Shown: positions 1 to 64,000 of the stretch, piece after piece | Layout: every line of letters begins with the position of its first letter | How positions within the stretch are numbered: position 1 is the first letter of the stretch | Source: Bilabrum cf. latius | Taxonomy: Eukaryota | Direction: 5' to 3' | Assembly: GCA_965178125.1 (NCBI GenBank) | Contig: OZ237756.1 | Coordinates: 310,001-374,000 of the forward strand | DNA length: 64,000 bases | Notes under the pieces: model-generated | Databases searched by the model: none | Told to the model about the DNA's origin: nothing | Seen by the model: only the letters and a program-made list of their open reading frames with translations | Program-made: the position numbers and the translations under genes

Positions 1-2964
1 CCGATGCTGCAATCAGGGCCAACTGGGCTGTTCCAGCACCTTGGAGATCTGACCGAGATACAACTGACCCTTGGAGCTGATTTTGCTGTCGAGAACGGGA
101 CTTGCGGATTCTTTGATGGTCTCGATCTCCTCGCTTCGCTGTCTATCGAGGCCCCAGGCGCCTACCGCATCTTTGGCAAAACCCAAGACCTGGCTCTCGA
201 TGGATTCCGTGACTGTGCATTTGCAAGCACACTGCGGTCGTTGGATCTGCAAGGCCTGGATCTGCGTCGGTCTGCATGGACCGAAGCAACGTTCGCTGGG
301 TTTTCTGAACTTGCTGCTCTCCGCGTTGTGGGATCCTCTGGTGATCAATCGTTTGATCTTGTTGACGGTGCTCTCTCGCCTCTTGTTAATGTGCAAACCG
401 TAGACTTGAGTGGCAATGGTTTTACATATCTGGCCCAGCTGTCCTTTGCTGCCAACGATGCCATGGAGCATCTGAATTTGTAGAACAACCCGATCGAGAC
501 TTCGCACGCCCAGGCATTTGCCAACCTGTTCAAGCTACAGGGAGTCAATATCTCCGAGAGTGTGGGAGCGCAGTGCAATCCCGGCACCTACAAAGCACCG
601 GTGGAGATACTCGGCAGTGCAACGACCGAAATCATGTGCGTGAAGTGCCCTGCAGGTACCTACTGCGAGGATGGCTTGCGGATGAGCGATTGTCCCAAAG
701 GCACCTACAGCGAAGCCGTGCTGGCCGCTTCGTCATCAACGTGCCTGCAGTGCCCCGATGGGACCACAACAGTCGGGACTGGAACGTCTACTGCGCTTGA
801 CTGCATTGCAGTGGTGGTCTCTTGCCCTGGTGGGATGGCAGGGCAGAACTGCGAGCCATGCTTGCCGGGCACGTCTTCTCCAGGCGGTAACGTGCAGTCC
901 TGCGAGACATGCAAGCCAGGGACTGCCTCTGTCTCCAAGCTTGGATCAATTGCGTGCTCTGAGTGTCCGTCAGGCACGTACATGCCAAGTCTTGGTGCTG
1001 CCCTCACATCCAGCTGCATTCGATGCGGGGCCGGCCTGCGCAGTGACAGTGGCTCGGCATTGTGCTCGGGGTGCCCAGGAGATGCCATTCTCGATTCAAG
1101 CACCAACGAGTGCGTTAATCATCCGCCAACATGCAGCGATCCTGGCACCATGTGCCTGCCCGGTGTGCCTGAGCCTGTGCCTGCTCTGGCTGTGATCCAG
1201 GAATCCTTGGCAGGTGTCCCCTTGCCCGGGAATGATGAAGATGCATTCGCCAGTGCTACCACCAGCAGCTACAGCTCGGGTGGATCCAGCAGGCGACTGA
1301 GAATGAATCCACAATCGGTTGTTGACCCCAAGGTCGTGGCAGCGCTCAGAGCGGGTGGGTTGGCTGCACGGCGCCTGCAAGAGCCGATGCAGAACGACTA
1401 GTCCAGTGGGGCAGAGGAGGCACCTGCAGATGAACCGGAGCCGGCCAGCGATGGAGGCACCGATGATGAGGATGGATCCGATGTCGACATTATCGCATGG
1501 ATTGTGACGACGTGCGTGCTCTGCGTGCTACTGCTCCTGTTGCTGGTTCCTGCAGCTCGACCAACGATGCATACGGGACTGCGCATGATCGACAGCATGG
1601 CGCAGGCGCACAAGCCCGTCGAGTATGCCGCTGTCAGGAGGATCACCACGGCAATGGGTGGATGGTTCACCGTCATGGCCGTGCTGGTGGCACTGACATC
1701 GTCCACTACCCTTGTACTCGATTTCGCCTATCGCAACTCCATCACCACGGATGGGCTGCAGGTGGCCACGGCGGGGGCCTCCGGTGCTGTCCGAGCTGCA
1801 TCGGCGAGAAGCAATGTGGTGCTGGATGCCGTGCTGTCTCCGACCTCCCTGGTGGCCTGCAGTGAGTCGTACCTTCTCACCGTGAGCTCTGGCCGCGCGT
1901 CGCTGTCTGCAGAGCAACTGCCAAGGGATGCCCCAGCGCATTCGATGCTGCAGCTGGCAGCCACTGCCACCGTGCAGGAACTACCATCGGATGGTCAGGA
2001 CCTAGATCGGCCCCTGTGCTGGCTTCGAGCCACGTGTGACGACTGCGGCCTGAGTGCTGTCACTGTGCTTGACCTCGACACCCACTGGGCTGTGCAGGCG
2101 ATCGGCTGGCGGCTGGCCACGCAAGACGCGGAAGGCCGCTGGTCCAGTGTGAGCGGCACTGCAGTGTCTCCATCAGCTGACCCACTCACTTCGAACACCA
2201 CAGTGCACCTGCAAGAGATGCTGGATGCTCGATCCGAGCAGGTGGCGTTCGTAGGTCACGTGCTGGATGACACGAGGGCTGGAAGCGCCAGGAGCGTGGA
2301 GGGGTTCAGGGTGCAAGACCTGCGCAGCGGAGCAACATCGACTCGATCTGTCGATGCCATCAACCCAGCCACCACAGTGACGAGGCTCAGCATTCAGGTG
2401 TCGCAAGCGGGAGTGTTTGCCACGACAAACATCACGCCAGCCTACACCTTGGCTCAGGTGGCTTCATCGATCGTGGGTCTCACTGTGGGTATCCTTGGCG
2501 GGTTCAAAGCTGTTTTCGCCATGTTTGAGAAGGTGCTTGGCCCAAAGGTGGAGTGGCTGTGTGGACGAACCGGACTGGTGGACACCGAGGAGGAGGCCAT
2601 GGAGCACCGCCGACAAGCTTCTGGCCCATTACCGGGACCAAAGAGCTCCGGCCAGGGAAGCGGCAAGATGTCTGCTGCTCCTGGCAACGCTAAGCCCATG
2701 CCAGCAGGTGTGTCTGCCCTGTAGGGACAGTCTCCCATGTGGTCTAGCCGTGGCCCAAAGGGTGAAGTTCTACAGAACAACACGATCGGCGGGCAGAGCG
2801 TCCGAGATGCAGACCGGGGATCTCAACCAGTAGAACTTGGCCGTGCCAAGACCATGACGGATATCAATGGTATGAAAGCCTCCAAGCCTACACAGAAGGC
2901 TCATGGAGTCGCCAAGCCCCTTGAGACGGGCAGCGAGTCACCTTCTGGCGGCGAACCGACGTGA
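1..2964 (+). CDS. LRR + cysteine-rich repeat transmembrane surface protein (5' truncated by window edge)
   Basis: ORFs 4-483, 562-1401, 1504-2724 and 2737-2964 share one frame and are separated only by TAG; it ends at TGA 2962-2964. It has LRR units (LRSLDLQGLDL, VQTVDLSGNGF, MEHLNL[Q]NNPI), CxxCPxGTY repeats and hydrophobic TM segments (IIAWIVTTCVLCVLLLLLLV). Confidence 0.8.
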
Positions 2965-3276
2965 GCCAAGCAGGCAGCCTACCGACGGAAACAGAGCTCC
3001 GGCTAGCGGATGGATCGCGAAGCGAGGTGACTGGATCTGTGGACCGGGACGCAGGGGCAGTGTAAATCGCCCCCCACAATCCAAGAACCATCGCTGCTTT
3101 GCAGGGGGCTGTGGGATTGCGCCTCGTTGTGATGCAGTGGGTGTGTCAACGCGTTTTACCAGCACCGACGAGCCAAGAGTTTGTCGGGAATGAGTGCTGG
3201 TTAGGGGGATGTGTTTTGTTTATTGAAGGCCCACTACTTCTAGACCACAAAGTCTCATCATGTTTGCCATGGATCC

Positions 3277-3533
3277 CTCACAGGTCGCAGGTCCCCCTCT
3301 CGTTCTACTCTACCTCCTGTCCGCCTGCGCCCGCCTCGTCTTCCGGCTCAGCTCTGACCCCCGTCGCTTCTATCTTGATCCCCAAGTACATATGACACAT
3401 ATAACGGTATCCGCTTGGCAATCGCTCTCGCACTTGGAACTAATTGATAATCTCGTGGCCTTGCTCAATGAGGCTCGCGAGGGCTTTGGCATAGTGTTTC
3501 CCCTTCTTTGTCGCGCCGTTGCGCATGTTCATG
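3277..3533 (-). CDS. possible small protein or last exon hidden by TAG codons
   Basis: With TAG=Gln the minus frame reads MNMRNGATKKGKHYAKALASLIEQGHEIINQFQVRERLP...EPEDEAGAGGQEVEQNERGTCDL-TGA and is open upstream to about 3725. No family was recognised. Confidence 0.3.
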
Positions 3534-4121: not shown

Positions 4122-6666
4122 TCAGAGCACCATGGCCATGCCCTTGACGAACTCGGCGTAGTTGATGGAGCCGAGCCCGGTGGCGGCGTCCCAGCCCTTG
4201 GAGGCCTTGAAGCCGGTGCAGGGGCCCGAGGGGCCAGTACAAGTCTGCTCGGTGCAGGCGTTGGATCCAGTCACAACATCTGCGGTCCAAAAAGGAATAA
4301 AAAATACCGATTTATTAAAAAAAGGGTCGAGTGGCTGTTGAGGTAGAAGCAAAACGCAGCCAACAAAGCATGCAACCACGGGAAAATTATCCGCAAACAC
4401 GCATACATCGCCAGCCATAGTGTGAGATAGAGAAGGGGCAGCTGGAGATGGCCGTGGGCGAGGGATGGCACATCCTCAGGCACCGACCCGAATAGGGACA
4501 GCAACAAGCTGCTCCCAACACGACAGACAGGCGAAAGCAACAATGAAACGTATTTCCCTCACCGTTGAAAGCCTTGGGGTTGGCCTCGAACACCTTGTAG
4601 ATGGTGGGGTTGGCGAATCCGAGCTTGGCCTTGCCCTGGCGCACGAGCTCGGCGTTGATGAGGGACAGGATGCCGGCGTTCACGGGGCAGGAAGCGGAGG
4701 TGCCGTCCACGGCGACCACCTGTCCGTTGAGCTCGATGTAGTACTGGTGGCCCAGCGCGGCGATGTCGGGGAACCCGCGGCCAGAGGCGTTGAAGGCGCC
4801 GGCGGGGGGCAGGTTGGAAGACTCCTGGAGGTACTCGCTGACCACCTTGTCCTGGTACTGCATGCGGGGGGTGTACGCGGAGAAGCCGCCGCCCGAGGTG
4901 ATGAGGGCGCCGGTGGACTTGGAGCACACGGTCTCGGTGCCAGCGCCGAGGCACTGGATCTGGTTGCACACGGGGGCCTTGAAGCCTGACTGCACCTGCC
5001 CGTCGGGGACCATGGTGGCGCCCACGGCGGTCAGGTAGGGGGAGGCGGCGGGGAAGGCGGGGTGCGTCTGGGTGGTGGCGCAGCCGCCGTCAGTGCGGCC
5101 GTGGGCGCCCGAATCGCCGGTGGCCACGGTGTGGGTGATGCCCATGGCGCCGACCTTGGCGAAGTTGGCGTTGACGGCAGACACGAAGGCCTCGGAGCCG
5201 CCGGACGCGCAGGGCTTGCTGGAGGGAGAGATCTGGCACTGGTCGGTCTCGGACCAGCCGTAGCTCATGCTGTTGACTGCGAGGGCGACGTGGAGTGGAA
5301 GTGGAAGTGAGCGCAATGAAAGGGAGATAGATGCGAGCGATGCCAAGAGGTGGGGGGGGGGCAGGCAGGAAGGCAGGCAGGAATATCGCTACAGTGCTTG
5401 CCATCCGCAAACTCCACACGAATCTCTCTATCTATTCTCTCTCTTTCTCACCGTCGGGGATGTCGGCGGCCTGCTTGGACACGAGGGTCTCGGTGTAGGC
5501 GAACATCCACTGGGTCTCGGTCCAGTACCAGTTGGTGTTGCCCTGGCCCACTGCGCCCAGGAAGGACACGTCAAGCACGGACTCGGCGAAGTCCTGCTTC
5601 TCGAAGGGACCCACGGTCTTGGCGATGGTGATGGGCTGCACGGCGCAGTTGGTGGTGAACGTGTCGATGTCCTGCTGCACGAAGGCGGGCACGCCCTGGA
5701 ACTCGATGGCGGCCTGCACCACCTTGGCGTCTCCCTTGGCAGAGTCCAGGTTGTAGAACTTGGACAGCGTCTCGGGGACCACGTACAGGCTGGGGTTGCC
5801 GGCCTGTGCGTCCTCCTCCGAGAGGGCGCGGACCTGGCCGTAGCGGGCCAGGGCCTGGGGGGTGAGCCCGGCGATGAAAGAGACGTGCTCCTCCATGCCC
5901 TCGGGGAAGGTCGTGTCCTCCACGATGCGGTGCACGCGGTCGCCGGTCACGGAGTTCTCGAACTCGTGGAACTTGGTCTGCAGGGCGGCACCCACGGCCT
6001 GGGTGGTGCCGCGGCAGCGCAGGGACGAGGGCATGTCCTTGCACGCCACGCCGTGCTGGTTCATCCAGCGGCGGGCGGCGGCCCTAGACTCCTCGCGGGG
6101 GGCGGTGATGCGGTTCACCTCATCGTTGGACAGGTACTGGCCGCGGCGGGCCGAGCTGCGCGCAGGTGAGACGAGCACAATGGCATAGCGAGTCCAGGAA
6201 CGATGGACGGGAGATGTGCAAGGTGCGATCATAATTCAACGGCCTTGGAAGGAGCAAAACCGTAGGAAAACGCATAATGTCTTCAAGTTGAGCTCTTGGC
6301 TGCGGCTTGCAACGCGATCTTGTTGCCTTCTGTGCCACTGTGTGGAAGGGCGCAGGCTGCATGATCGCGATCCAAGCACCGCCATCACGTCTGCTAGCCC
6401 TCGCGGCAGGCGTTCCCCTGGCACCAATGTGCGCGCAACACATACATAAAGTCTTTATGATTGGCCGCATAGGAACACGGGTCTCACCCAGGGGTCGAGA
6501 CGGCAACGAGCACGTCGTCGATGATGTGCTGGTTCTGCTGGGGCAGAGCCACGCTGAAGTCCACGACCTCAGAGCCGGTGGAGGTGCCGCGGAGCATCCA
6601 GGTGGATGCGGGCATTGCTGAAGCAGCAGCTGCTGCGAGAGCGATGGTAGCGGCCACGGTACGCAT
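4122..6666 (-). CDS. secreted S53 sedolisin / tripeptidyl-peptidase-1-like serine protease, 4 exons
   Basis: Signal peptide MRTVAATIALAAAAASA, prodomain GQYLSNDEV, and motifs ESVLDV, SMSYG, ATGDSG, GRGFPDIAA, catalytic DGTSASCP and GWDAATGLGS. GT-AG introns at roughly 6156-6488, 5273-5451 and 4280-4562. Confidence 0.9.
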
Positions 6667-6866: not shown

Positions 6867-9800
6867 TCACACCCCTGCTGCGAACTGTCCCCGCCCGGCG
6901 GAGGATGGCTGCCCCACGTCCTCCTCCTCGTCCTCCTCGTGGCTCGCCTCGGTCCCTCTGCTCCTCGCAGCCGCAGTCCTGGATCGAGAGGCAGCATCAC
7001 CCGAGGAAAAAGCATCGCCAGCGTCAGACGATCCAGCCCCTGGCCCTCTCTTGCCTCCCCTCAACGCGTCACCAGATCCCCTGATGCTGGACCCCTTCCC
7101 CTGCACCATGGCCTCCACCTCCCGCATCACAGCGTCCACGTCGTCCCCGTCACCACCGGGCGCAGGACCCCCTCGGCCCCCCATCACGGGGGGGGAAGCA
7201 CCCCTGGATCCGCTGCGGGATGTAGCCCCACTCAGCACCTGAATGTGCACGTAACTATCGTCCCGCCCCGGATCCGCCGCCCTGGGAATGGAGTTGGCTC
7301 GCACGAGCACCGGGGTGCTGCTGCCACCCTCTCGAGCTCCAGCACCAGCGCCAGGCCCAGGTCCAGCTCCGGATCCCTCTCTCTGTTCCTCACGGAGGGC
7401 CGACTGCACCTCCTCGAGCAACCCGGAGCCGGAAAGATCCTCCTCCTCCGCCTCGCCGTCCTCGTCCGTCCCGTCGCTCTCCAGATCCAGCCCGACCCCC
7501 CTACGGTGTTGTTCCCTGGCATGCGCCCTAGCTTCGGCGGCCATGCGGCCTCGTTCCAGGGCGCTGAACGAGGGACCCGAGGGACCCTTCCCGTTCTCAG
7601 CCTTGCTGTGGCGGCGTTGTTCCTCGTCCTCGTCCTGCTGCTTCTGTGTGGTCTGTTGTTCCCTGACTCGGTGCATTACCTTAAGGCGGGCGGCCTCCCG
7701 CGGATCAGACTCGCTCGTCACACCACCGCTGGCCTCGCTCGCCGCGCCGTCCGAGGCCCCGTCCCCTGCGGCCGCACGCTGCCGGAGCCGTCCCTCAAGC
7801 TGCATCGCACTGCGCATCGCCTCCGTAGCGCGGCGCCGAACGGTGCCCGGGCTGTCCCCCGAGCCGCCGTTCGGCGCGGCGCCCGAGGTTCCGCTGGGCG
7901 CCACCGCCGGGGAGGCATCCGCTGCGGCTGGCTGCGCGGCTGAAGTGTCTAGTCGGGAGGGGGGGTCCGCGCGCCGGGAGCGGGGGGGCGCCGCGGCCGA
8001 TGCACTGCCGTGCGATGCACCCCGCTGGTCCGGCTTGGATGCCCGCGCCGCTGCGGCCTGCTTTGCCCTCGTCGAATCCGATCCTGCCCCCGCTGCCCCT
8101 GCAGCCCGGCTGTTCATCTCCTTGAGGGCCTTGGCGACCCGGCGCCGCGCAGCCCTGGCGCGGTCATCATGTTCCGCAACCCGTCGGCGGAGCGCCTCCA
8201 GCTTGGCGGCCCGCGCGGCGCCTCGGGCCGCGGCGCCGGACCGCAGCCGGGCCCTAAGTTCCGCATGGCGCCGCGCACCCTCGTCCAGCTCTGGAGCCTC
8301 CTGCTGGCCCGCCTTGGTGCCGCGCTTCCCTGCGGAACCGGACCGCGAGCGGCGCCGCGCGCCGCCCTGGGACTGGGCCGCCGCCGCCGCGCCTCTCTCC
8401 TTCTGCTTGGCCTGTTCCCTGGCCTGCTCCTTTTGCCACCACCTGTCCAGCGCGCCCCCCGCCTCCCCTTTGCCCTCCCGGGCCGCCTAGCCCACCCCCT
8501 CGTCCTCGCGGGCCTCTCTGGAGAAACGGACCCGCCTGTCCATGTCGTAGGCCATGCGCTTGTACTGGTCCGACAGGGTCTCCCACGCCTGGGTGATCCG
8601 CTGGAAGGCGGTCGTTGCGCGGCGCCGCGACTCTGCGGAACCTTGGTGCTTGTCGGGGTGCCACTTGAGCACGGCTTTGCGGTACGATTTCTTGAGCTGC
8701 CCCGAGGCCGTTGCCCTGCCGACACCCAGCACCTGGTAGTGGCTCAGATCCCTCAGCTGCCTCGCGTCTAGTAGCCTTCTGGCCCACTGCCTGTCCGTGG
8801 GGTCCGTCTCGAGGAGCGACTCGAAGTCCTCGGCCGCCTCCGAGAAGGCGAAGAGGGCCATGTGGCACTCGGCCCGCTGGGCGAGGGCGTTTCGATAGGA
8901 GGGGTCCTGCTTCAGCGCGCTGCCGCAGTCCTCCACGGCGCTCACGTGCCGGCCCATCCTGTAAGCTGCCCTGGCCCTGTTGTAGTGGAGCGTGGCCATG
9001 TCGCGGTGCGTGGCGGGCTGGGGCGCTTTGGGGGCTAGCCTGAGGGCATCGCCGTACGCGTCCATGGCCGCGGCATAGTCTTTCAGGTTGTACAGCCGGT
9101 TCGCGCGGACGCTCGCGTTCCAGAACAGCACGCCATCGTCGCCCAGCATCTTGCCTGCAGCCGTGCTCTTCCCCCCTCCATCGCCGCTCGCTGCAGCACG
9201 TGCAGCTTCGGAGCTAGACCCTGTCCTTGGCGCGCCCCTGTCGAAGACGTCCGCCTCATTCGATGCTCCTTGTTGCTCATTGGTGGCAGAACCGGCGCTC
9301 GAAGAAGACAGCCACGCCGGTTCCAGTGAGCCCGCTCCTGCCCCTGCACCTGCAGCCGAGTCGGAAGCAGAGGAGGGGGCAGAGGATCCCGCCGTGGTTC
9401 CCTGAGCCGCCGAACTGCCTCCCACCATGAGGGCGGGGTCATCACCCAGCGCGGCCAGGCCCTCCGAAGCGCATTGCATTGCGGTGTGGCCGAAGCAGTC
9501 CGTGGCTCGCGGGTCGGACCCGTGCAGCAGCAGGTACCTCACGGCCTGGGGAGCGTCTGCTGCCGCGGCGTAGTGCAGCGGGCTCCTCCCAAGCACGTCT
9601 CGCACGTCGAGCGAGGGCTTGCCGTCGGGGCCGATGGGGCGGGGGGCTGATCCGGAGCCTGAAACCGGGTCCTCGGGGTGGGCGTGCCGGGGTACTAAGC
9701 ACAGCCAGGGGCCAGTGGACGGCGAGGGTGACGATGCACCCGAGCTGCCGCCATCCTTTTCCGGTTTGTCGTCACCGGCCTCCAGCCCCAGGGCCCGCGC

Positions 9801-38448: not shown

Positions 38449-38468
38449 TTACTATACACAATCATAAA

Positions 38469-45503: not shown

Positions 45504-45532
45504 AGAAACTTTTATAACAAGTTTGACCAAAA

Positions 45533-46154: not shown

Positions 46155-46238
46155 TGAACTCTGCTGCGAATCAATGAGTGCTCCTTCTACATGCCCAATG
46201 GCCAAATCACGGACCCGCTCCCACAGTTGGGGCAGTTC

Positions 46239-46241
<3 letters not shown>
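46155..46241. repeat. Ngaro repeat B2 (87 bp)
   Basis: Matches 46979-47065. Confidence 0.95.

Positions 46242-46304
<63 letters not shown>
46242..46304 (+). repeat. 63-nt poly(A) tract between A2 and B2
   Basis: Homopolymer seen directly. Confidence 0.95.
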
Positions 46305-46305
<1 letters not shown>

Positions 46306-46348
46306 AGGACGTCCCTGCGCCCGTCCCGCGCCCTCTCCCCCCCACGAG

Positions 46349-52094: not shown

Positions 52095-54077
52095 TCAGTC
52101 ACCGAAGATGGACCGCCAGTCGCGATCCACATTGGGGGTGCCGTCGGCGCGGCGCCGCGACGTGTCCGGTTCCGCATCGATGTCGGCCACTCGCTGCATG
52201 CACTCGACCAGCAGTCCAGGGACACCGTTCACGGTGTCGAAGGGGGCCAGGAGCCGGGTCAGATCGGCGTGAGGCAGCGGAGAGGTGGCCGGGTCACGCC
52301 ACCAGCGGCTGCCCGCTGCCCACGCCGCGCAGCTGCGGAGGCGATCACCCGCGCGCAGCACGTTCTAGCCGGGGGTGAGCTCGGAGCCCGCCGCGGTGTC
52401 ATACACCCAGCACATCACCTGCTCCGGGACCGAGGTGGCCTGCCGGAGGGGAGTGGTGGTCCCCACCGTCGCGACCATCCTTGCCATGGAGCTCGAGCGG
52501 GCCCACAGGTCACCCACCGTGCCCAGCTCCGGCGTGGCCAGGTCACGGCTGCGAGGGGCGCCTGGCTGCGAGGCGTGCCCGATGAGCGTGCGCCGCATGG
52601 CCAGGGCTTGGCACGACCGATGCACCCAGATGCCCTGCACGACTGCTGCCAGCTTGCCCGAGCCGCTGCCTGCCCCCGCCCGGAGCAGCCCGATGGTGGC
52701 GTACGGTTCACGCCGCTGCAGGGCGGACCCCAGGGCTGTCACCGCGGTGACGAAGGAGGCCAGGGCTGCCTTGCCCGCAGATGGGGCCTTCAGGGCGCGC
52801 TCGCCGGCCTTGCCACCACACACCGCGTCCACCATGGCAGCCAGGACGTCAGCGAACTAGGCAGGGCAGCGCAGGGGCTCCAGCGTGAGCAGCCTGAGGT
52901 CGTGCTCCAGAGCCGCACGAAGGAAAGTGCGGACCCCCTCGCGCACGAGGCGGCTGTCTGGGGGCGGCGCGGCCCCCGTGGCGTCGATCAGTGCGGCCGT
53001 CGTGTGAGCCAGCGAGGTGCCTGTGGGGGAGCTAGAGGGTTCAGGGACGGAGCCAGCCGTGACCGTGTACGTGGGGGGACAAGCGTCGGTTGCAACCGTC
53101 TCACCGGGGGGTTGGGCCGCCGTGGGCCGGGGGAACGCCGCCGCCTCGCCCATAGCGACGAGGAGCGGTAAGACGGAGCCGCCCTCCAGCGGGCGCTTGC
53201 GGTACAGGTCAGTGGCCTGCTGAGCCAGCTCCTGGATGGCGTCGCGTGGGGCCATAGCTGCCAGCATGTGGAACAGACCGAGCGGGGCTGCGGGGCCGGC
53301 GGAGTACTTCAAGCCGCGCAGAATGACCTCAGCCCAGAGTGCCGGGACTCCGGTCTACAGGCGAGTCTGGAGCCGGCGGGCCGCCTCGGCGAACTCGGCA
53401 CGATGGACGTCAGGTAGCGGCGGCAGGGGCCCACTCAGGGCGGGCAGCGAGCCCACATCGATGACCAGCAGGAAATCACCCATCAGCGCCGCGGCGTTGG
53501 CCAGCACGGAACGAGCGGGCCCGCGCCCAAGTGCATGCCCCGCCGACTTGCCCAGAGCCACAGCCTCATCGTCATCCGCTTGGCCCAGCGGGATCCCATC
53601 CAAAGAGCCGGCGTCCGCGTCCGGCACGGCGTCCGCCTTGGGCAGCTGAATGTCCTCACAGATAGAGTCGAGGCGCGTGGACAGCAGCGGAAAATTTGCA
53701 TGCGTCACGGTCAGGAATGAAGTAACGTAGTCCCGAATCTCCGTCTGCAGGGCTTCGAATTCCGCGGACCCCAGGCTTTCGGGATCGATGGAGGCCAGCG
53801 CGATGGTCATGTCGCCAAGTCGGCGCGTCGCCCAGCGGTCATCCCAGAGGCAACGAGGCTCCGCGTCCCCAGACGATTTACTCGAGCGAGCAGCAGTCGA
53901 ATCAGCTGGAGCAGCTGCGTCTGGCACTGCGGTTTGCAGCCACTTCACTGTCAACGGACCGGACAAGTCTTGCAACGGGGCCAGGATTAGCCGAAATGCC
54001 TCACCAGCCCGCCCTGTGCGGAGTGCAACCTGTACAGGGGCAACATATTCAGCCATTCCCGTAGCTGCAGAAGACAT
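52095..54077 (-). CDS. Ngaro ORF1 (gag-position protein), 660 aa
   Basis: Four track ORFs in one frame joined by TAG; ATG directly after repeat A1; TGA at 52095. Confidence 0.75.
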
Positions 54078-54083
54078 AGCTGC

Positions 54084-54713
54084 GGACAGTCCGCCCCGAA
54101 TCGACTGGTTCTCCTCAGTCGCGTCTCGCGCATGCTATACCACACTCGCCACAAATGTACACGCTACCCCAATCCTTGCATCGTCTGCGCCTCCAGGCTC
54201 GCTCCGATGCCTCCCCTTCTAGTCCTGCCCCATTCTGATCTGCTGTCTCCCTACGCACCCGTACGTCTCAGCCTTCGCCAGAAATCCTACTGCCTTGTGG
54301 TCTGGCCCCACTCGGCTGCCTCCGCTGCCCCTCCCTCCCCATGGGCCTCCACGCTCCCGAGCCCTACTGGCTTGCTCGGGCCTGTCCGTGCCCCTTCGTC
54401 GTCCCCGCCACGCGTCTGGTTAACCGCGCTCGGGGCATCCCGATCCTCCCCTTTCCTCCGTTCATCTTGGAATCCCCCTCTCCGTCGCCTCCCCCGGTGC
54501 CACCCGACCCCTTGGTGGGCCGCCGCCCGTCCACCCTGTCACCTCCGCCAAGCTCCCCCGTCTGCTCCTGTCCCCCTCTCACCTGGCCCCCTCGCTGTCA
54601 CCTCCCGCCGTTGTTGTCCTCCACCTGCACGTGCGCTGCTGCTGTACCCTCCCCGTCGGAGCCCCCATCGCTGTCTCACAGCCCTCAATCCCAATGTCTG
54701 ATGACACAGATAA
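54084..54713. repeat. Ngaro repeat A1 (630 bp)
   Basis: Direct repeat of 46349-46978; both give identical 189-aa translations in the ORF track. Confidence 0.95.
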
Positions 54714-54994
54714 GTAATCTCTTTATGTTTCTTTTCCTATGCTTTTTCATACAAGTATTTGATGTCTTCGTCTAGGGGTTCGACCTGTTTGATTAAGTGT
54801 CGTGCTAATAAATCCATTTTCCTCTGCGGAAATCGTTTCCCTGTAAGTGATGATACTTGAAAATCCTAAAATGACATACTATCATCTCCAAATTGGTTGT
54901 CTGTGTTTTCCGCCGTGTATAAAATACGTTTTCCGTGAGTGTCATATGCGATGGGTGTTGATTTTGTAGTTTCCTTCCAAGAAAAATGAGCCAT
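54714..54994 (-). CDS. packaging ATPase, 5' part
   Basis: MAHFSWKETTKSTPIAY...KHKEIT joins in frame to LK[Q]GEFQSLP at 46154 when the Ngaro is removed (903 nt, 300 aa). Confidence 0.88.
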
Positions 54995-55183
54995 TTTAGT
55001 GTATTTACTATATGTTTTTATTTTTTCTAAAGTGTTTTGTCTTTTTGTTGAAAACTTATTTTGAATGATTGTCTTTTATGCTATCCACAAATTCCAAAAC
55101 GGATTTTGTAGAAATACTTCTACGCTTAAATAGTGGTTAAGAGAATTCATCTCCCCCAATATATGTTTCTATAATAAATATAT

Positions 55184-55720
55184 ATGGATTATGCTCTTAG
55201 CGATAGTGATATTCGTGTTCTCCTCCAAACTCCACCAAATATTAAGGGGTTTCTTCCTACGTCGGTAAACATCGTTCCATATACAGAATTAGGATAGTAC
55301 AATAGTATTGATGGATTATTTAGTCGTTGTAATTGTTGTATCATTCTATACCAAGAAGAAATAAATTCTGGACACTGGGTGTGCTTATTTAAGCGTAATA
55401 AAACAATATACTTCTTTGACAGTTATGGAATTCGTCCTGATAGGCAATAGCACACAATGAGTGAAAGCGTGCGGAAACGTTTTTATGAAGACCCTGAGTT
55501 AATATATTTAATGTATCATTCTCCGTATAAGATTGACTATAACCCATATTAGTTTTAGGCGGATGGAATGGATATAGCAACCTGCGGGAGACATTGTATA
55601 GTTCGTCTTTGGAATAGGGGAAAAAACGCTGATTAGTATAAAAAGTGGGTGGATAAGGTTTGTAAGAAACATACATTAAATCCTGATGAATTAGTGTATT
55701 TATTGACGTGTCATTTATGA
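55184..55720 (+). CDS. virophage maturation cysteine protease (adenain/Ulp1-like), 178 aa
   Basis: SGHWV (His), YFFDSYG (Asp) and Y[Q]F[Q]ADGMDIATCGRHC (oxyanion Gln, Cys). Confidence 0.92.
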
Positions 55721-55999
55721 ACTCCAAAGGTAAAAATGTGAGAAGAACTTTGGGGTTCTTGGTTTTACTTCGATACCGTGTCGTTTGAAGTATCTAAATT
55801 GGCGGTCCGTATCTAAATGATTTAAATGGCTGTAATACCCTATTCTATCGTAAAATTGCTAATACCGCCTATCACCAAACGATGTAATATATTCATCATT
55901 TTCGTCAAAAACATCATACTTCTTATTCTTGCGTCTTGAGGGTGCTTTAAATAGAAAATTCTCAACAACCTTTTCAAAATCGTAGGTATGTAGCTTCAT
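55715..55999 (-). CDS. small viral protein resembling DUF5754-type family, 94 aa
   Basis: KKYDV...SFGDRRY[Q]QFYD...HLDTDRQFRYFKRH...FFSHFYLW pattern, recalled from large DNA virus and virophage proteins. Confidence 0.65.
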
Positions 56000-56030
56000 A
56001 AGTACTTTATAGTATAGTCTTCTACTTATA

Positions 56031-56144
56031 TCAAAGCCCGAGCTTCTTGTATTCCTTTAGTTTTTCGTGTAATTTTTTCCAAATACGTGGATTAATTTGC
56101 TTGACAATATGCTCTATCATCAACTCCTTTAAAAATGGGTTCAT
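56031..56144 (-). CDS. 37-aa ORF
   Basis: MNPFLKELMIEHIVKQINPRIWKKLHEKLKEYKKLGL, preceded by the viral CTATAGTAAATG motif. Confidence 0.5.
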   Translation of the reverse strand: MNPFLKELMIEHIVKQINPRIWKKLHEKLKEYKKLGL

Positions 56145-56292
56145 TTACTATAGTGATATAGAATGGTCTTAATTATCATCTCTTGGGAAATCCAATCTTT
56201 GAAAAAGATATCAAAAGAGCGGAGGGCAAAGCCCGAGCATCTTGGAAAATTAATTTTAATATTTCTTTGTATCCTATATTGTCAAAATTTTT

Positions 56293-57116
56293 CAATCAAT
56301 TTTTGTGTTTTTAATTGGAAAACAATTATAATTTGTTTTTTATTTTCCTTTTAATTTTTATGGTGGCATCATAGGAATTACAACATTTAATTTTAATCTT
56401 TGAAAAAGATATCAAAAGAGCGGAGGGCAAAGCCCGAGCATCTTGGGAACTTAATTTATTTTTTCTAAGTCTCTTATAATTGACCTGTAAAATCTCTCAA
56501 TTTTTGGGGGACTTTTCCAAAGGGACTTAAAATACGTTTTCGTTTTCCTTATAATGTATCATCTCTTGGGTAATCGGTTTGGTTGCTTCGGAGAACAATT
56601 TAGTCGCTTGGGAAATCCTTGGGAAATCCTTGGGAAATCCTTGGTCGGTTCATCGGTCGGTTCATCGGTCGGTTTATCGGTTTGTCGCTTGGGAACATAC
56701 CTCGGTCTCTTGATAAAATACCTTGTTCTCTTGGGGAAATCCTCGGTTGGTCTCTTGGTCTCTTGGGAATTCATCCTTCCGTTCCTACAGCAAACACAGA
56801 GATATTTTGGACACTTGGTTAATTTCTTCATTTTTTCCTACTTTACTAAAACATCTCTGTCTTTGCTGTTAGAGTTTATAAGGGGGTTAAATATTAGAAT
56901 TCTTCAATTTACCCCTACTTCGTAGGAGTAAATTTTATATCTGAAAATGGGTACATAGAGGGGTTCTATAGGGGTTCTTGGGGAACCCCCTGTGAAATCA
57001 TTTAGGTTTATAGGGGAAACACTTGAGTTGCTAAATATGCCTTTAAAGGAGGGGCGAGCGTAGCGTAGCCCTCGTCCTAAACGCTTGGTGTACCTACCAC
57101 CACCTGTTGTCCCCCC
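56293..57116 (-). repeat. right terminal inverted repeat (about 824 bp)
   Basis: Reverse complement of the left TIR, with 3 rather than 6 copies of the 11-mer and without the extra ~200-bp block. Confidence 0.93.
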
Positions 57117-58629
57117 CGAAAGCGAACCTGGTGGGGTCTCCACCGGGACAGCATCCGCCCCGATGTCCATGCTGCTCTCTGGATCGAATCCAGCACCACT
57201 CGATGGTCCGTCACTAGTAGCACGGGAGCCGGGGCCACTGGAGGCTTCCGCAAGCAGGCGAACGTGCTCTTCTTCGAAGTAACCTGCGTTCCGCTGAATG
57301 TGCCCGGCGGCGGCGAAAGAGCCCTATGCCGCCGGGGTTGTCTGCTTGACAGAAGCGATGGCTTCGTGGCACCAAAAAGATATTGTAGATCCAGCTGCTG
57401 CAACCGATCCCGCCGCGGTGGCGTTGGCATCGTCGGCCGATCTAGATCCGCCGAGTGGCGCTGCCTGCGCGATGCCCGCCTTCTCACGCAGAGCTGCAGA
57501 TAGCAGCTCCTCTGGCCGGCCAGTTGGCTTCATTGCCATGCTACTCAGCATCTCCGCGAGGTCCGCAGGCAGCGGGTCATCCGATACTGCGCCTGGAGCA
57601 ATAGTGGAGTATCCGATGTTGTAGTATGGTGGGCCGCTGCCAGGCTCACCGATCAGCCGGATGCTCAGCCGATGACCGTACCTCTCGGTCCTCTGCAAAG
57701 CACGGTATCTTCCGCTGAGGGAATGCTTGCATGAAATCACTTCGACGTATAGTCCGCTGTCTAGCGCGTCTTGCACGAGGCGGGGGAATTGGAATACCGT
57801 GTCCTGGCTGAATCCCGATGTGTTGCCGTCACCTGTACGTACGAGGGGTAAATAATCGAAGAATGCGGATATTTACGATTCGATCTACAATTATCAATTC
57901 GAAAACGTGAGTGGATGTAGAGTGTAAACGGTACAGTGTCAACTAAGAGCTCACCAGTGCACAGCACGAGAACGAATCTGTGCTTCTCCTGCGCGTTCGC
58001 CCCAGACTCTATTTCTTTCTACACGATTGCATGCTACTTAAGCAATTCTCTCATTCCAACCTTGGCGAAGTCCCGAACTTTCAAATCGACTGTCTGTTCG
58101 CCTGATCCTGGCCTGCGAAGCTCGATTGCCACCTCGGGCCTGCAGTCGAGACTTCTGAACGCGGCTTCATCCGCACGTTTGTCATCCACGCTAGTCCGAG
58201 ACCCAAAAATACCAATCATATTTTTACCGTTGGAGTCCGCAATGATACGACGCTGTCGCATGACAGAGTGTATGAACGCCTAGATGTCGACCGTGTGTCC
58301 GGCAGTCTTTGCCGGAAGCCAAACGTTCGACCAATCGACTGCGACTGCAATAGTCTGCAACGTATCGTCATATGCATTGCCAGTTGATATGGCCCTTTTC
58401 AGTGTTGCTGCCATCATGCTGCGGTTGCCAAGCAGGTCAGTTGTGATCCAGCTAGCTTTGTTGGACAAATGGATAACACGAGAGGTAAGGTGTGTTTTGC
58501 AGCCCTGGCCAATCCATTGAGTGCCCCGACTCTTGTACTACGTCTGGTACGATACATGCGGCGAAACAAAACCGAGGTCTGAGCACGCACCACAAAAACC
58601 ATAAAGTCAGGCGCACAATCACCCATCAT
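57117..58629 (-). CDS. 5' part of the DEAH helicase-RBR gene (two predicted 44-nt introns: 58579-58622, 57833-57876)
   Basis: ...ETPPGSLS joins in frame to SLRVVYAIASDY at 31385 after removing the provirus and one TSD copy. The GT-AG introns reconcile the frames. Confidence 0.8.
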
Positions 58630-58647: not shown

Positions 58648-59805
58648 TCACTCGTCACTGTACCACGTGGTAAGGGGCACCCTGCTGAAATACACGGCAC
58701 AAGAAGGACCATCGCAACCCTCCATCCCGCCCTCCCACAGCAGTCCGGGGTCATCCGACAGTCCCTCCATCAGGCATGAATATGCCCCTGGCCCCGGCGA
58801 CACAACCATTGACTCTGGCAAAATGGATTTGAAACCATCCGCCGAGGCATGCACAGACATGTTGATCCTTCCTTGGCTGCTTGAGGGATTGGAGAACAAG
58901 GCCACCGCCTGCCCAGAGTGGGGCAGGTGAAATCCCCCCAGGGTACTCCCCTGGCAATTCGGGGTCGGCAGATCCACTGGGTGGGTCGCCTTGCTCCACG
59001 CCATGCCCCTGGCACCAGGCACTGCCCAAGCAAAGGGCCGAAGCGGAGACAGACCGTTCCCTCTCAGCGCGATGGCTGGCTCTCCGCTCGGCTGGAGGAA
59101 CAGCTGCGGCTCAGAACCACCGGGGAACAATGCAGAGGGGTCAGCCACCGCCTGCCACCGCTGCCATCCCCCGGCCTCGTCGTCTGAATACCACACGCCA
59201 GCCGCGAACTCTCCAGAGGTGCGGTTGTGCCGGTATCCTGCGAACATGACCCGGGGTCCGTCGTACTCCGAAACTGATGCAGATCTTGGTTTAGCTGCTG
59301 GCAGGTAAATCCCCCTGCCTGGGCCCAGATCCATGCTCTCGAATCGGCCAAGCTGCGCGTTGATGTCTACGGGCTTCGTCCAAGTGAGGCCCTGGTCGCT
59401 GCTGGTACTCATCCACACCGAAGAATCGGACGCATTGTTAAAGTGGAGCACGATGTCCCCGTTCGGAAGAGGAACCATGGCTGGGTTGCTGGTGCGCATG
59501 GTACCAACGATATTCAATTCTAGATCTGACCAAGATTTGCCGTAATCCAGCGATCGTCTCATGCACAGATACCGCTCGCTCTCATCAACCGCCCTTACTG
59601 AATCTAAATCATGAGGGCGGCATCCGTCGCCAATCCAGGCTCTGCACTCCGCCACCGCAACGATTACACCCTTAGAAACCACGACCGATGGGATTCGAAC
59701 ACAAGGCGTGGACGAGGTCATGTTAAAATGAAAAATCGCTTGCGGCAGTGCCGATGCCAAGCCACAAGTGACTGCAATTATCACGGTGATTATAGCAACC
59801 AACAT
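58648..59805 (-). CDS. secreted sialidase-like protein (GH33, BNR/Asp-box)
   Basis: Signal peptide, RIP motif and Asp boxes RSLDYGKSW, SSDQGLTW and YSDDEAGGW; also SEPQ and AYS. Confidence 0.85.
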   Translation of the reverse strand: MLVAIITVIIAVTCGLASALPQAIFHFNMTSSTPCVRIPSVVVSKGVIVAVAECRAWIGDGCRPHDLDSVRAVDESERYLCMRRSLDYGKSWSDLELNIVGTMRTSNPAMVPLPNGDIVLHFNNASDSSVWMSTSSDQGLTWTKPVDINAQLGRFESMDLGPGRGIYLPAAKPRSASVSEYDGPRVMFAGYRHNRTSGEFAAGVWYSDDEAGGWQRWQAVADPSALFPGGSEPQLFLQPSGEPAIALRGNGLSPLRPFAWAVPGARGMAWSKATHPVDLPTPNCQGSTLGGFHLPHSGQAVALFSNPSSSQGRINMSVHASADGFKSILPESMVVSPGPGAYSCLMEGLSDDPGLLWEGGMEGCDGPSCAVYFSRVPLTTWYSDE

Positions 59806-60044
59806 GCGGTATGGTGCTGATTGGGGCGGGATATACTTCCTTTCTCGTTCGTTTAATGCCTCACGCTGGCAAAATCAATCGGAGCGGATTGGGTTCACAG
59901 GTTCGCAATACAAACACCGGCCAACATCCCAAAACCATGCGATTCGAGCATCAAATAATTCCCGTAGGGGATACGGGTAGCACTGGATCTCAACTCGCGA
60001 CAAGCAGACCGGAGCACGCTACGAGCATGCACGATCGATTCACC

Positions 60045-60127: not shown

Positions 60128-62148
60128 TCACTGAGAGTTCGCCCACGGCGGAGGAAAGTTCGCTCGGTGCGTGTGCAGCGACAGGTCGTCCAGATACACG
60201 GGCTGCCCCTGGAGCACAGTGTCAAGGCACACGAAGCGGACCTCGTCGATCGTCACCGAGGGGTCGATGGGGACACCCCCCGCGGATTTGGGGCAGTCGA
60301 AGCGCCTGCTTCCGATGAAGGCGTCCCTAGGGTAGTCGGCCGAGGGCGCGTCCCCCAAACCGGAACTAGAGCGGCCCCCCAGCACCCGCTCGGTGTCTCT
60401 CTCGGCGAGTACGTGCCACCCCTCCGCCGGTGCTTCCGTGCTCTGGATGTTGCAGTTGGGAGCGTTGACGCAGTGCTTGTCCTGCCAGGGGTAGCACGTG
60501 GGGGCGGGGACCAGGGTTTTCCACTCCGGATCCCCCGTGGCCCGATACTCGATGGTGTAATTGGAGATGCGCTGGCCGCCTGTGGACAGGCCCTCTTTCG
60601 TGCTGACGTAATCCACGTCACCAAGGGTGGTACCCTTAGGCACAGACAGCCTGAAGTCATCATCGTGACCCGCACCGCAGCCCCCAGACTTCCGACCCAG
60701 AGAGGCCACCGCGCTGCCCTCGCCGAACGTTCGGTTCCTCGCGTCGCCGAACTCCTTCATCACCCCGACCATGCTCTCGTTGTAGCGGCCCGAGTCGTCC
60801 GCGGCGATGTTCAGGTTGAGCGTCTTGCCGTGGCCCACGGTGCCAAGGTAAGCCCCGAAGAGCCGAGCCGCGTCGCCGAAGCCCACCGTGTCGTGCCAGA
60901 ACCAGAAGGTCGGCAGCTTGGACGAGTGCCCGTCGGGACCCTCCTGCATGGTGACACCGTGAGACTCGAGAGCGGAAAAGTAGGGCCCTGTGGGGTCCTG
61001 GGTGACGCACTTGCCTGCGTCCGTGCTGTTGGGCCTGGGTCCCCCGGCCTTGCTGCCGTAGATGGAGGTCAGGGGCCGGTAGCAGACATCGCCGGCCTTG
61101 TACGGTCCCACGAGGGTGCCTGGGGCCATGGATCGGATCACAGGGAGGGCCTCGTCCCACAGCTCGCTGATGTTGGTGCCTGTGGGATAACCGGAAGTGC
61201 CGTCGAACCAGAGCCGGGAGGGGGTGTAGGGCGGGGTGAGCAGCTCGCGAAGCTTGTTGAGCTGCGTGTTGATGTACTCCTTGGGGGTGGCATTCTTGAC
61301 GTCAACCTCCCAATGGGCGCACTGGATGTTGAAGTAGTACCCCACTCGCATGCCCCACTTGTGCGCAGACTTGACGAATTCCATCAGGGGGTTCCTGCCG
61401 GTCGACTTGCCCCAGGGCGAGTTGGTCGCAGAGTACTCGGTCGTGTTGGTGTCCCAGAGGCACCAACCGCCCTCGTGCTGTGCTGTAACTAGAATGGATT
61501 TCATTCCCATGGCTGTGCTCGCCTCCATCCACTGGTCCGTGTCCAGGGCGAAGGGGTTCCAGGTGTCTCGGCCCATGCATGGAGCGTCCTGGTTGGCGCT
61601 CGAAGTGTTCTGCACCGTCTTGCAGTCGTGCCAGGTGATGGCCCCGACTTGTTTCAGATACTATTCATTCGAGTTAATCATAGTGTTGATGCCCCAGTGG
61701 GAGAACTACATTGAAAGGTGAGGCATACTGTGCAGGATCCTTTCGATGTGTTTATTGTGTTTCGTGAAGAACCCGAATGCTCCACTTCAATACGTAACCG
61801 ACAAATAAAACAAAGTGGTCCTTTACTTGCGTCCATAAAAGAAGACTTCAACTTAAAAGACTCGATCGTGTTCAACATCGAAGCCGTGGCACGCAAATTC
61901 AGTACGCTAAGGAAAAGCAAACAATTACCGTCAAAGGAACACCAAGCACCACAACAATATGATCTACATGTAAACAATATAATGGACCCTTTAAATCTTA
62001 CCTGGTTAAGCTCTTCAGCTAGAAACTGGAGTTGTCGCTCATCGGGCATCGGAACCGAAGTGCCCCGCAAATCATGACTTGGGGTCCATTCTTCCGCCAC
62101 AGCCAGTGAAGCTCCTGCTACTGACAATAAAGCAGCGATTGATTTCAT
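60128..62148 (-). CDS. secreted alpha-L-fucosidase (GH29), intron about 61706-62001
   Basis: Signal peptide, PDERQLQF, FSHWGINT, WNPFALDTDQW, TAQHEGGWCLW, LRELLT and LWFDG. Confidence 0.88.
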
Positions 62149-62392
62149 GCAAAGTAATCAAATAGTAGCTGGATAGGAGTGGCGCAATCTACCGAATCGT
62201 GCGTCGAACTCAATTTGGTATATCGTACAAGCACGCAACAGTCCAAGCCAAGCGTCGAGAGGTCGAATCGAGGATTCGACAGGCAGAGTCTCTCAGAATG
62301 CAAGTTTATCTGTCGCTCCCTGTCTGAATCGTGCAGCGCGATTCAGGCCTAGACCCCACAGCCCCCCCTCCCAAATCACCCCCCTCACCAAA

Positions 62393-63698
62393 TCAGCCCC
62401 TGCTGCTCCTCCTCCTCCCGCTCGATCGCCTCCGGCCACTGCCTGTGGAACCCTTGGAGGACGCCGCGGTGGAACTCGGCGAACGTTCGCTGCCCCCCTT
62501 CGCCCCTTTGCTTCCCACCACCACCTCCTCCACCTCACTGTCCTCGTCCTCATCCTCACCGCCAGCAGCAGCATCAGCAGCATCAGCAGCGAACGGGTCC
62601 TCCTCGTCCCCCTAAGCACCTGCCCCGTGCTCGCCCAAAGCAGCCACCGCTGCCTTCATGGCCCCCACATCCACGCCACCCCCTGCCGCAGAGTCCGCAT
62701 CGAAAGCCGCCTGCATGCGGCCAAAGGCCCCACCGACAGACGACCGCCGTGCCGTCGCGGCCGCGATGCTCCTCCTTCTGCTCACCTCCTCCTCGCTCTC
62801 AACGCGGGCAGCGAGCGCCACGCACAGGCCCTGCAGGCGATGTGCCTGCTCCACCACGCCCTCCACCTCCTGCGCGGCGCCCTTGGGATCGGTTCCGCAG
62901 AAGTCCTCGGTCGCTTTCGAGATGGAATCGCTCGCAGACTCGAACTGGGGAAGCCGCTTCTGGTACAGCCGCCTGACGTGCTTAAGGGCACGGCGGCGGC
63001 GCTTCTCCTTGAGAATGGCCTGGTGCTCCTCCGCGATCTGCTGCCGAAGTTCCGCAAGCGCGGCGTCGGTCGCAGCCTCCTCCTCCTCCTTCTCCTCGTC
63101 ACCCTCCTTGCCTCTGGCCTGGTCAGCATCGTCTTGCTCGCCCAAGTCCAGGGTCGGGGGGATATCGAATATGTTTCGCATGACGTACATTTCAAATTTG
63201 TCCATATTCTGGTCGAAGTGCCGACGCAGGTCCTCCACCAGGCTGTCGCAGCCGTGCGCGATTTCGGCGCGCACCTCGCTATCGCTAGGTAGGCGGCGCG
63301 ACTTAGAAGATGTCGGTGCCTTTGGCAGGGCCTGCAAATTATGTTGAGACAGTAACTTCACCATGATAGTAGGCGGGCTGGTCCGCTAAAGCAAGCTTGG
63401 CAACACTACACGTGCAAATGTGTGACTGCAGCCCAATGCAACATTCTCTCACGCTGTCCAGGCCTTCTTCCATTTTATCAAGACCATCGCATATATAATC
63501 ATCAGCAGCATTATAGACTGCGCGGGTGGTAGAGTAGTATTGAGGGATAGCGGCAATACATAGGTCTTAGGCAAATTTCACAGGACCGGCAAGCAAGCAC
63601 GCAAAATAAAGGCCCTCACTGTCCTCGACGAATCGCATCGGATCGAAGCCAAAGTATTGAACGACCCTAGGGTCGGAACTGCTGCCTGCGGCAGCCAT
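62393..63698 (-). CDS. MIS12: Mis12 kinetochore protein (multi-exon)
   Basis: N-terminal QYFGFDPMRFVED and FDQNMDKFEMYVMRNIFDIP followed by a coiled coil. It reads through TAG 62612 to TGA 62393. Middle exon boundaries are uncertain. Confidence 0.75.
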
Positions 63699-64000
63699 GT
63701 TGAACGTGAATGGCAGTCTGCGTTTTTCGAACAAACGTCTCCGAATCGGCGCCGCGCTTTGCTTAACGGAACCAAACTTGATGCCGGTCCGGCATTGCCG
63801 GACAGGACCCGTGATCCAACGTGCAACGATGCGTTCATATATCATTCTAAACCGAATCACAACCCAAGGAAATACGCGTGCCCCCCAGCGTTCTGAATCG
63901 GGGTGGCAACGGGCGAAGCCAGCGCCCACTCGTACCACGTCTTGGTGGCGCTGCTGCACCGCCACAGGTGCACCTCCACCAGCTCGCCCTTCTTGACAGG

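Follow-up and report, generated by a model that had tools for sequence, protein, structure and literature searches.

Separation of UAG from UAA in a Bilabrum cf. latius locus: host, virophage and Ngaro genes that appear to read UAG alone as glutamine

Introduction

Reassignments of UAA and UAG nearly always concern both codons at once. Have the two been separated in Bilabrum cf. latius? The question is raised by a stretch of 64,000 nt of its genome (assembly GCA_965178125.1, contig OZ237756.1, positions 310,001-374,000; hereafter the window, with positions counted from its first nucleotide), which carries GC-rich host genes, an integrated virophage and, inserted in the virophage, a Ngaro-type tyrosine-recombinase retrotransposon. 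An earlier reading of the sequence (the original prediction) proposed that the host nuclear code has UAG as glutamine and UAA still as a stop. The comparisons reported here indicate that the cytoplasm of this organism very probably reads UAG as glutamine and stops at UGA and UAA, and that host, virophage and Ngaro genes share this code. That the virophage and Ngaro genes themselves carry in-frame TAG goes beyond what had been proposed.

Results

Long host frames are open only when TAG is sense

Frames were taken from stop to stop with TAG as a sense codon, i.e. cut at TAA and TGA only. Under the standard code the longest frame of the window is 1168 amino acids (aa), and it is still 1168 aa when TAA is made sense; making TGA sense gives longest frames of 1168, 1003 and 988 aa, and making TAG sense gives 2797, 2498 and 1867 aa. 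These last three are the low-complexity gene P0001, the helicase-RBR gene P0002 and an ankyrin-TPR-DnaJ gene (Table 1), and they correspond to the host frames of 8.4, 7.5 and 5.5 kb originally described as broken only by TAG; we find 8.4, 7.5 and 5.6 kb, with 30, 22 and 3 TAG respectively. The counts of TAG/TAA/TGA in P0001 are 30/0/0 in frame and 15/4/25 and 30/13/67 in the other two frames, and those in P0002 are 22/0/0 in frame and 30/7/30 and 28/7/60 elsewhere, so that TGA is common out of frame (25-67 per long host gene). At the off-frame density, the Poisson chance of finding neither TAA nor TGA is 2e-24 for P0001 and 3e-23 for P0002. The part of P0002 that is anchored by Pfam matches at both ends, from the helicase to the IBR domain (residues 191-2441), contains 19 TAG and no TAA or TGA. 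Four host frames add up to 58 TAG in frame with 0 TAA and 0 TGA, and the total for host, virophage and Ngaro is 166 TAG with none of the other two codons. In-frame TAA as frequent as TAG, one of the outcomes that the original prediction had named in advance as damaging to it, is not seen.

The TAG codons are unevenly spread among host genes. The sedolisin, fucosidase, Ctr, Mis12, LRR and sialidase genes have few or none within their Pfam domain matches and so carry no information on the identity of the residue. P0001 contains, at residues 328-448 (14030-14450), seven tandem 20-aa repeats with a TAG at the identical position in each, which means that the TAG was already in the unit before it was amplified.

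Virophage and Ngaro genes carry the same codon

Host DNA in the window has a GC content of 61%. It is interrupted by an AT-rich block (31391-57117, 38% GC), itself interrupted by a 68%-GC insert (46155-54419); the block is the virophage and the insert the Ngaro element. The virophage has terminal inverted repeats (TIRs) at 31391-32451 and 56194-57117, of which the outer 511 nt are 100% complementary, GAAA on both flanks and GC-rich DNA beyond them. Eleven virophage frames, tiling 32725-46684, contain between 0 and 15 in-frame TAG each, 101 in all, with 0 TAA and 0 TGA, and the virophage frames align over their full length with Pfam models or homologues. The major capsid protein (MCP) matches Sputnik_MCP_1st (2e-22) and MCP_V20_C (2e-27), and the family B DNA polymerase (PolB) scores 24.7 with DNA_pol_B_2, just below the cut-off of 25.8. 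TAG makes up 40% of the putative Gln codons of the virophage (CAA 105, CAG 48, TAG 101) and 15% of those of the host (77, 255 and 58, respectively). The two largest Ngaro frames have 7 in-frame TAG, 0 TAA and 0 TGA.

TAG faces glutamine in close relatives

The closest virophages are four metagenome contigs, L001-L004, whose MCPs are ~60% identical to the window MCP. For each virophage gene the window TAG codons were masked as X and the best high-scoring segment pair in L001-L003 (relatives roughly 55% identical) was used. The 69 TAG sites compared in this way face a TAG in 10 cases and a sense residue in 59: Q (18), K (7), E (7), S (6), T (4), R (3), A (3), Y, M, V and D (2 each), and G, N and H (1 each). 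Leucine, an alignment that had also been singled out beforehand as speaking against glutamine, is found at 0 of the 59. With substitution profiles taken from the same alignments the log-likelihood is -143.1 for Q, -176.6 for E and -182.8 for K, Q being ahead by 33 units. TAG faces Q with a frequency of 0.31, to be compared with a self-conservation of 0.34 for Gln encoded by CAA or CAG, while true E and K columns are ~50% self-conserved in these alignments. At a site where L001-L003 have TAG, L004 has Q encoded by a normal sense codon.

For the host, P0002 was compared with database open reading frame (ORF) pieces of the helicase-RBR gene of a related organism, which are 76-87% identical to it; the named helicase relatives are only distant (Mastigella, Gefionella, crustaceans), and a feature search with the TAG-free sialidase-like protein returned no informative taxa. 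The pieces end exactly at P0002 TAG 230, 724, 830 and 2337. Because they break at TAG sites we infer that they were called under the standard code, and because they end there the related organism would share the code, its own stops being deduced from the ends of the pieces. At six other P0002 TAG sites the relative reads through, with Q at four of them (651, 1773, 1838 and 1845). The contexts around the P0002 TAG sites are conserved in the relative, as in ALFR-LPGLAR-GHF. Comparison of the predicted proteins thus shows UAG to be a sense codon, read as glutamine, in agreement with the original prediction, for which the virophage likelihoods and the host sites provide separate tests.

Comparison with close relatives places TAA and TGA at gene ends

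All nine host genes of the window end in TGA, as had been proposed, and 0 of 9 in TAA; evidence on TAA comes from the mobile elements. The virophage packaging ATPase ends with a TAA at the exactly homologous C-terminus of the L002 and L003 proteins (blastp, C-terminal gap 0/0), and a virophage frame of 241 aa ends with a TGA at the same residue where its relatives have TAA. PolB and a protease-like gene also have TGA where their relatives have TAA, with ends that match only within 3 residues for one of the two and 15 for the other. The majority of the L001-L003 genes end in TAA. Virophage genes prefer A-ending over G-ending codons by about 2:1 (CAA 105/CAG 48, GAA 199/GAG 79, AAA 245/AAG 115), and a TAA synonymous with TAG should occur in frame ~220 times in them; 0 are observed. 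The same calculation at the CAA:CAG ratio of the host gives ~17 expected and 0 observed. Frames cut at TAA are expected to lack it, a bias which is limited for the virophage by the fact that its frames are full length with respect to Pfam and to L002/L003. It is the presence of an AT-rich virophage in the same cytoplasm that makes the split between UAA and UAG visible, unlike in the GC-rich host genes alone.

The original prediction listed seven positions at which viral and Ngaro genes would end. The codons are there: the + strand reads TTA (TAA on the - strand) at 37493, 38469, 43462, 45533, 47065 and 55715, and TAA at 45501. Five of them (38469, 43462, 45533, 47065 and 55715) could be tied to frames, whereas 37493 and 45501 were not linked to a supported gene. 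The claim that UAA is kept as a stop stands for the virophage and Ngaro ends, the ATPase C-terminus in particular, and finds no host gene here that ends in TAA. By comparison with relatives, then, TAA and TGA are shown to terminate genes, and the absence of in-frame TAA suggests that UAA would terminate host genes proper as well.

Recoding marks a small virophage clade

The MCPs of L001, L002, L003 and L004 themselves contain 6, 6, 6 and 3 TAG in frame, lack internal TAA and TGA, and close with TGA. They are the only loci with in-frame TAG among 160 virophage MCP loci; the sole other exception is a single in-frame TAA in the MCP of locus L068. L003 needs TAG as sense, its ORFs adding up to 4845 aa and to 1151 aa under the standard code. 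Judging from these loci, the recoding is specific to a small virophage clade. The four contigs have a GC content of 40-52% throughout and no GC-rich flanks, and could represent either free virophage genomes or parts of integrated ones. In IMG/VR no close relative of the window MCP was found with the protein or with an alignment as query, the best of the 80 top matches to the alignment being 27% identical, and no match to it was found by tblastn in a phage collection. Nor did any close MCP relative that bears a name turn up. No tRNA gene was found in the 64-kb window or in L001-L004, and the window has no Rfam match, rRNA included.

The DNA is supported by contigs from two studies

Three runs of one study each have a DNA contig of 15,240 nt, and one run of a second study has a DNA contig of 9,186 nt; all match the window with 0 other letters and 0 gaps. 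Since identical contigs come from two studies, the window is not an assembly artefact. Within the low-complexity P0001, contigs of three runs (X2-X4) connect position 20426 to the earlier position 16784 through 17 other letters, which could reflect either a variant mediated by repeats or an artefact of the assembly graph. The outer virophage TIR (31392-32000) has a contig word depth of 882-2413 in runs X2-X4, compared with 19-43 on the adjoining host gene, and although such depths are not copy numbers, this suggests a multi-copy sequence.

Organization of the locus

The features of the window are listed in Table 1. The sedolisin gene changes frame twice, from which it follows that the host has spliceosomal introns; no TAG lies within its recognizable exons.

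Table 1. Features of the 64,000-nt window, with in-frame TAG and end codon where given.
Feature	Position	Strand	In-frame TAG	End	Remarks
Host LRR and ephrin-receptor-like cysteine-rich gene	1..2964	+	3	TGA	Pfam LRR_8, Ephrin_rec_like; 5' end beyond window
Host sedolisin (pro-kumamolisin and S8/S53)	4122..6235	-		TGA	Pfam Pro-kuma_activ, Peptidase_S8; introns; TGA of last exon at 4122-4124
Host ankyrin-TPR-DnaJ gene	6867..12467	-	3	TGA	1866 aa, 5.6 kb; 0 TAA, 0 TGA in frame
Host P0001, low-complexity with WW-like motifs	13055..21445	+	30	TGA	2796 aa, 8.4 kb
Host Ctr copper transporter, predicted frame	21551..22480	+	2	TGA	
Host P0002, DEAH-type helicase and IBR/RBR	23934..31427	-	22	TGA	2497 aa, 7.5 kb; Pfam Helicase_C, AAA_22, IBR
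Integrated virophage	31391..57117	.			GC 38% without Ngaro insert; inverted repeats and core genes
Virophage rve integrase with chromodomain	32725..33873	+	6	TGA	Pfam rve, Chromo
Virophage primase-helicase	33874..35592	+	10	TGA	DUF5906
Virophage protein-primed family B DNA polymerase	35632..37491	+	4	TGA	L003 homologue ends TAA
Virophage 418-aa frame	38469..39725	-	11	TAA	
Virophage MCP	40424..42208	-	14	TGA	0 TAA, 0 TGA in frame
Virophage penton (minor capsid) protein	42296..43555	-	15	TGA	Pfam V18-19 2e-10
Virophage packaging ATPase, C-terminal half	45533..46160	-		TAA	blastp to L002/L003; weak AAA Pfam matches
Ngaro-type tyrosine-recombinase retrotransposon	46155..54419	-			GC 68%, ~8.3 kb; direct repeats, reverse transcriptase/RNase H, tyrosine recombinase
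Ngaro tyrosine recombinase frame	47065..48345	-	1	TAA	TAA directly at repeat B1
Virophage ATPase, N-terminal half	54539..55075	-			Matches residues 24-121 of L002/L003 ATPase
Conserved virophage gene (protease-like)	55178..55720	+	5	TGA	Homologues in 34 virophage loci
Host BNR/sialidase-like gene	58648..59874	-	0	TGA	
Host alpha-L-fucosidase frame	60128..61786	-	2	TGA	Both TAG just upstream of Pfam match
Host Mis12 frame	62393..63448	-	2	TGA	

The virophage gene at 55178..55720 recurs in 34 other virophage loci and has no Pfam match; judging from the virophage core-gene set, it is probably the cysteine protease. The ATPase recurs in 32 other virophage loci. In the window its halves (45533-46160 and 54539-55075) are separated by the Ngaro insertion, and a virophage copy with a split ATPase is probably not able to package. 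Insertions of Ngaro in other genes of the EMALE virophages have been listed, and the ATPase is not among them (PMC8547959). A TATAGTA/TATACTA motif, often as TCTATAGTA, lies within ~25 nt upstream of most virophage first ATGs (32700-56000); the exact TATAGTA occurs in 7 of 14 virophage upstream stretches. The position of the motif suggests a promoter-like role, as expected for transcription by giant virus machinery.

The Ngaro repeats occur in the order A1-[ORFs]-B1-A2-B2, which is the arrangement that defines Ngaro elements (PMC8547959). The A pair (300 nt, 54084-54383 and 46349-46648) and the B pair (87 nt, 46979-47065 and 46155-46241) are each 100% identical. The Phage_integrase match of the element scores 29.2 bits (cut-off 27.1), and its RVT_1 and RT_RNaseH matches are both below the Pfam cut-offs. 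A 51-nt unit, encoding a 17-aa repeat, is repeated in tandem at least 13 times within the frame that bears the reverse transcriptase (50300-51211); these copies account for part of the unusual 8.3-kb length of the element. A run of ~60 A on the + strand (46242-46302) lies between repeats A2 and B2.

Discussion

In this work we compared host, virophage and retrotransposon genes of one locus with their relatives, and the result points to a code in which UAG alone has become a glutamine codon. Several observations weigh against this reading. The absence of in-frame TAA is in part a matter of construction, because frames were cut at TAA, and only the spans anchored by homology or Pfam are free of this bias; no host gene in the window (0 of 9) ends in TAA. 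A control in which TGA is sense gives frames of at least 300 aa that add up to 34,726, more than the 30,551 obtained when TAG is sense. When distant standard-code virophages are used instead of the close relatives (42 columns, each counted once), the log-likelihood is -118.6 for Q and -120.6 for E, and bootstraps give Q in 765 and E in 232 of 1000, a narrow lead. One TAG column of the MCP is Y in six of nine homologues. In the host, the relative has K at P0002 TAG 1430 and S at TAG 1489, i.e. at two of the six sites read through, and P0002 TAG 230 (30738-30740) aligns with the first Arg of helicase motif Ib in 130 of 134 homologues; over the nine TAG columns of the helicase domain the likelihood favoured R, driven by the residue-230 column alone. 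Two proteins, P0006 and P0007, show Q at TAG sites, and since they were probably predicted with TAG as Q they are not independent and were left uncounted.

A code with TGA as sense was rejected despite its larger ORF sum: its longest frames stay at ~1000 aa, and every supported host gene ends in TGA. The gain in summed length is noise from GC-rich DNA, distributed among its six frames, and no supported gene is joined by it. Motif Ib, whose consensus we take to be TQPRRVAA, is degenerate in P0002, where it reads TEP-TAG-PESAA, the next Arg being Pro; the related organism, too, has a stop-like codon at the residue-230 position. The catalytic activity of the P0002 helicase may be altered.

The nearest alternative in terms of known codes is the common one in which both UAA and UAG are glutamine, TAA being merely rare in a GC-rich host. 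The host part of the window alone discriminates weakly on this point, because TAA is scarce even out of frame (0-13 per host gene) and every host gene ends in TGA; for the anchored span of P0002 only ~6.6 TAA would be expected. We nevertheless consider this code extremely unlikely, because the AT-rich virophage frames have 101 TAG and 0 TAA in spite of their twofold preference for A-ending codons, because TAA closes the ATPase at its homologous C-terminus and interchanges with TGA at the end of the 241-aa frame, because most L001-L003 genes end in TAA, and because reading through TAA barely extends the long frames (2797 aa is unchanged, 2498 becomes 2516 and 1867 becomes 1878 aa). That UAG is sense and encodes another residue, such as Glu, Lys, Leu, Tyr or Arg, would agree with the close second place of E among distant homologues, with the R of the motif Ib column, with the Y of one MCP column and with the K and S of two host sites. 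This is very unlikely in view of the likelihoods obtained with close relatives (Q -143.1, E -176.6, K -182.8) and of the scarcity of the other candidates at the sites themselves: L faces TAG at 0, Y at 2 and R at 3 of the 59 virophage sites, and Q is found at four of the six host sites. Moreover, E and K columns are ~50% self-conserved, yet TAG faces each of the two at only 12% of sites.

It could also be imagined that UAG is ambiguous in the manner of the context-dependent codes of certain ciliates, being sense within genes and a stop close to the ends of transcripts. A terminal TAG would escape notice in frames that are cut at TAA and TGA only, and P0002 has TAG at 3, 22 and 49 codons before its TGA, past the last Pfam domain. 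However, the MCP, the ATPase, the 241-aa frame, the penton protein and the primase-helicase end 0-3 residues from the ends of their homologues and show no extension past a TAG, so that ambiguity appears highly improbable. The proposal that the TAG codons are not translated at all, being assembly errors or parts of pseudogenes or in-frame introns, or being removed by RNA editing, is hardly credible. The host does have introns, as the sedolisin gene indicates, and one fucosidase TAG directly before the Pfam match could be the 3' end of an intron. Against this, the sequence of the window recurs without a difference in contigs of two studies; decay would have introduced TGA and TAA too, whereas 166 TAG are found with 0 of either; the sites lie within conserved peptide contexts and face Q in relatives; and introns are not expected in the virophage, none being reported in EMALEs (PMC8547959). 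In conclusion, a cytoplasm that reads UAG as glutamine and terminates at UGA and UAA remains by far the best account of the locus.

By analogy with the known UAG-only codes (PMC5304391, PMC11687900), such a cytoplasm would contain a tRNA-Gln with the anticodon CUA that decodes UAG without wobbling onto UAA, and an eRF1 that has lost recognition of UAG and keeps that of UAA and UGA. In AT-rich DNA, C-to-T drift would convert CAG into the synonymous TAG, which would explain why the share of TAG among Gln codons is 40% in the virophage and 15% in the host. Such a code would also restrict the virophage to hosts that share it, together with any giant virus on which the virophage depends.

The original prediction described UAG-only Gln as rare and gave the fornicate Iotanema as the example. 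It is indeed rare, and it is also found in the phyllopharyngean ciliates Hartmannula sinica and Trochilia petrani (PMC11687900). Iotanema spirale resembles the organism studied here in that UAG alone is Gln, that UAA and UGA are stops and that it is a non-ciliate protist (PMC5304391). It differs from it in that UAA is its primary terminator (PMC5304391), whereas here nine of nine host genes end in TGA, and TAA endings are confined to virophage and Ngaro genes; the window, moreover, represents a GC-rich (61%) genome with virophage and Ngaro elements. The two ciliates likewise have UAG alone as Gln and UAA fixed as a stop, and prefer UAA as their stop (PMC11687900), unlike the host genes here, which end in TGA. 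Long GC-rich genes, introns and an integrated virophage are, in our judgement, unlike a ciliate macronucleus. In a rhizarian and in other ciliates UAG encodes Leu (PMC5304391, PMC11687900). The same formal code, with TAG as Gln and TAA and TGA as stops, is that of the TAG-recoded crAss-like phages (NCBI table 15; PMC9523058); these recode against the code of their host, whereas here the virus matches the host. The integrated PLV-like elements of Streblomastix strix follow the variant code of their host, as here, and in that organism UAA and UAG are both Gln (PMC10120064); here UAG alone is concerned, and metagenomic relatives share the recoding.

The combination of virophage and Ngaro had been taken to recall Cafeteria-like organisms, and the architecture indeed matches. 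Like the window virophage, the EMALEs of Cafeteria burkhardae are low-GC virophages with TIRs of ~1 kb in a high-GC host; their core genes are MCP, penton, rve integrase, protein-primed PolB and primase-helicase, as here, together with an ATPase and a protease, for which the window has a split gene with weak AAA matches and a probable counterpart, respectively; and GC-rich Ngaro elements with the A1-[ORFs]-B1A2B2 arrangement are inserted in them (PMC8547959). The resemblance does not extend to base composition, the host GC being 70% in C. burkhardae (PMC8547959) and 61% here, and the Ngaro element of the window is ~8.3 kb long and splits the ATPase. The EMALE genes were called with standard tools, and a term search of PMC8547959 found no mention of a variant code. 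Halocafeteria, with a host GC of 47% and without Ngaro, is unlike the window (61%, Ngaro present).

The type of code is already known, from Iotanema and two ciliates, and the present case looks like a further example of it; what is added here is a virophage lineage and a retrotransposon that share it. In open-access full text we found no published report of this code in a virophage-bearing protist, a stramenopile, a bicosoecid, Cafeteria or a heterotrophic flagellate, and no published recoded virophage. The wider proposal is that a nested parasite system uses UAG as Gln together, namely the host, a virophage lineage (the window and four contigs), Ngaro and, by necessity, a giant virus; to this we give about equal weight for and against.

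If it is true, a virophage with 40% of its Gln codons as TAG could not be expressed in a standard-code cell, and the change of code would act as a wall to host range. Recoded eukaryotic viruses would be largely invisible to catalogues built by standard gene calling, as suggested by the finding that none of the best 80 IMG/VR matches of the MCP belongs to the clade. Giant-virus/virophage systems may track the code changes of their hosts, and virus catalogues may miss them. Similarly, standard-code gene calls on this genome and its mobile elements will be fragmented, as the database fragments of the related organism already are. Each lineage that separates UAA from UAG shows that their coupling is not a hard mechanistic constraint, and offers a natural pair of eRF1 and tRNA able to distinguish the two codons. 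Outside ciliates and fornicates, such a separation would have arisen independently once more, here in a GC-rich organism that prefers UGA.

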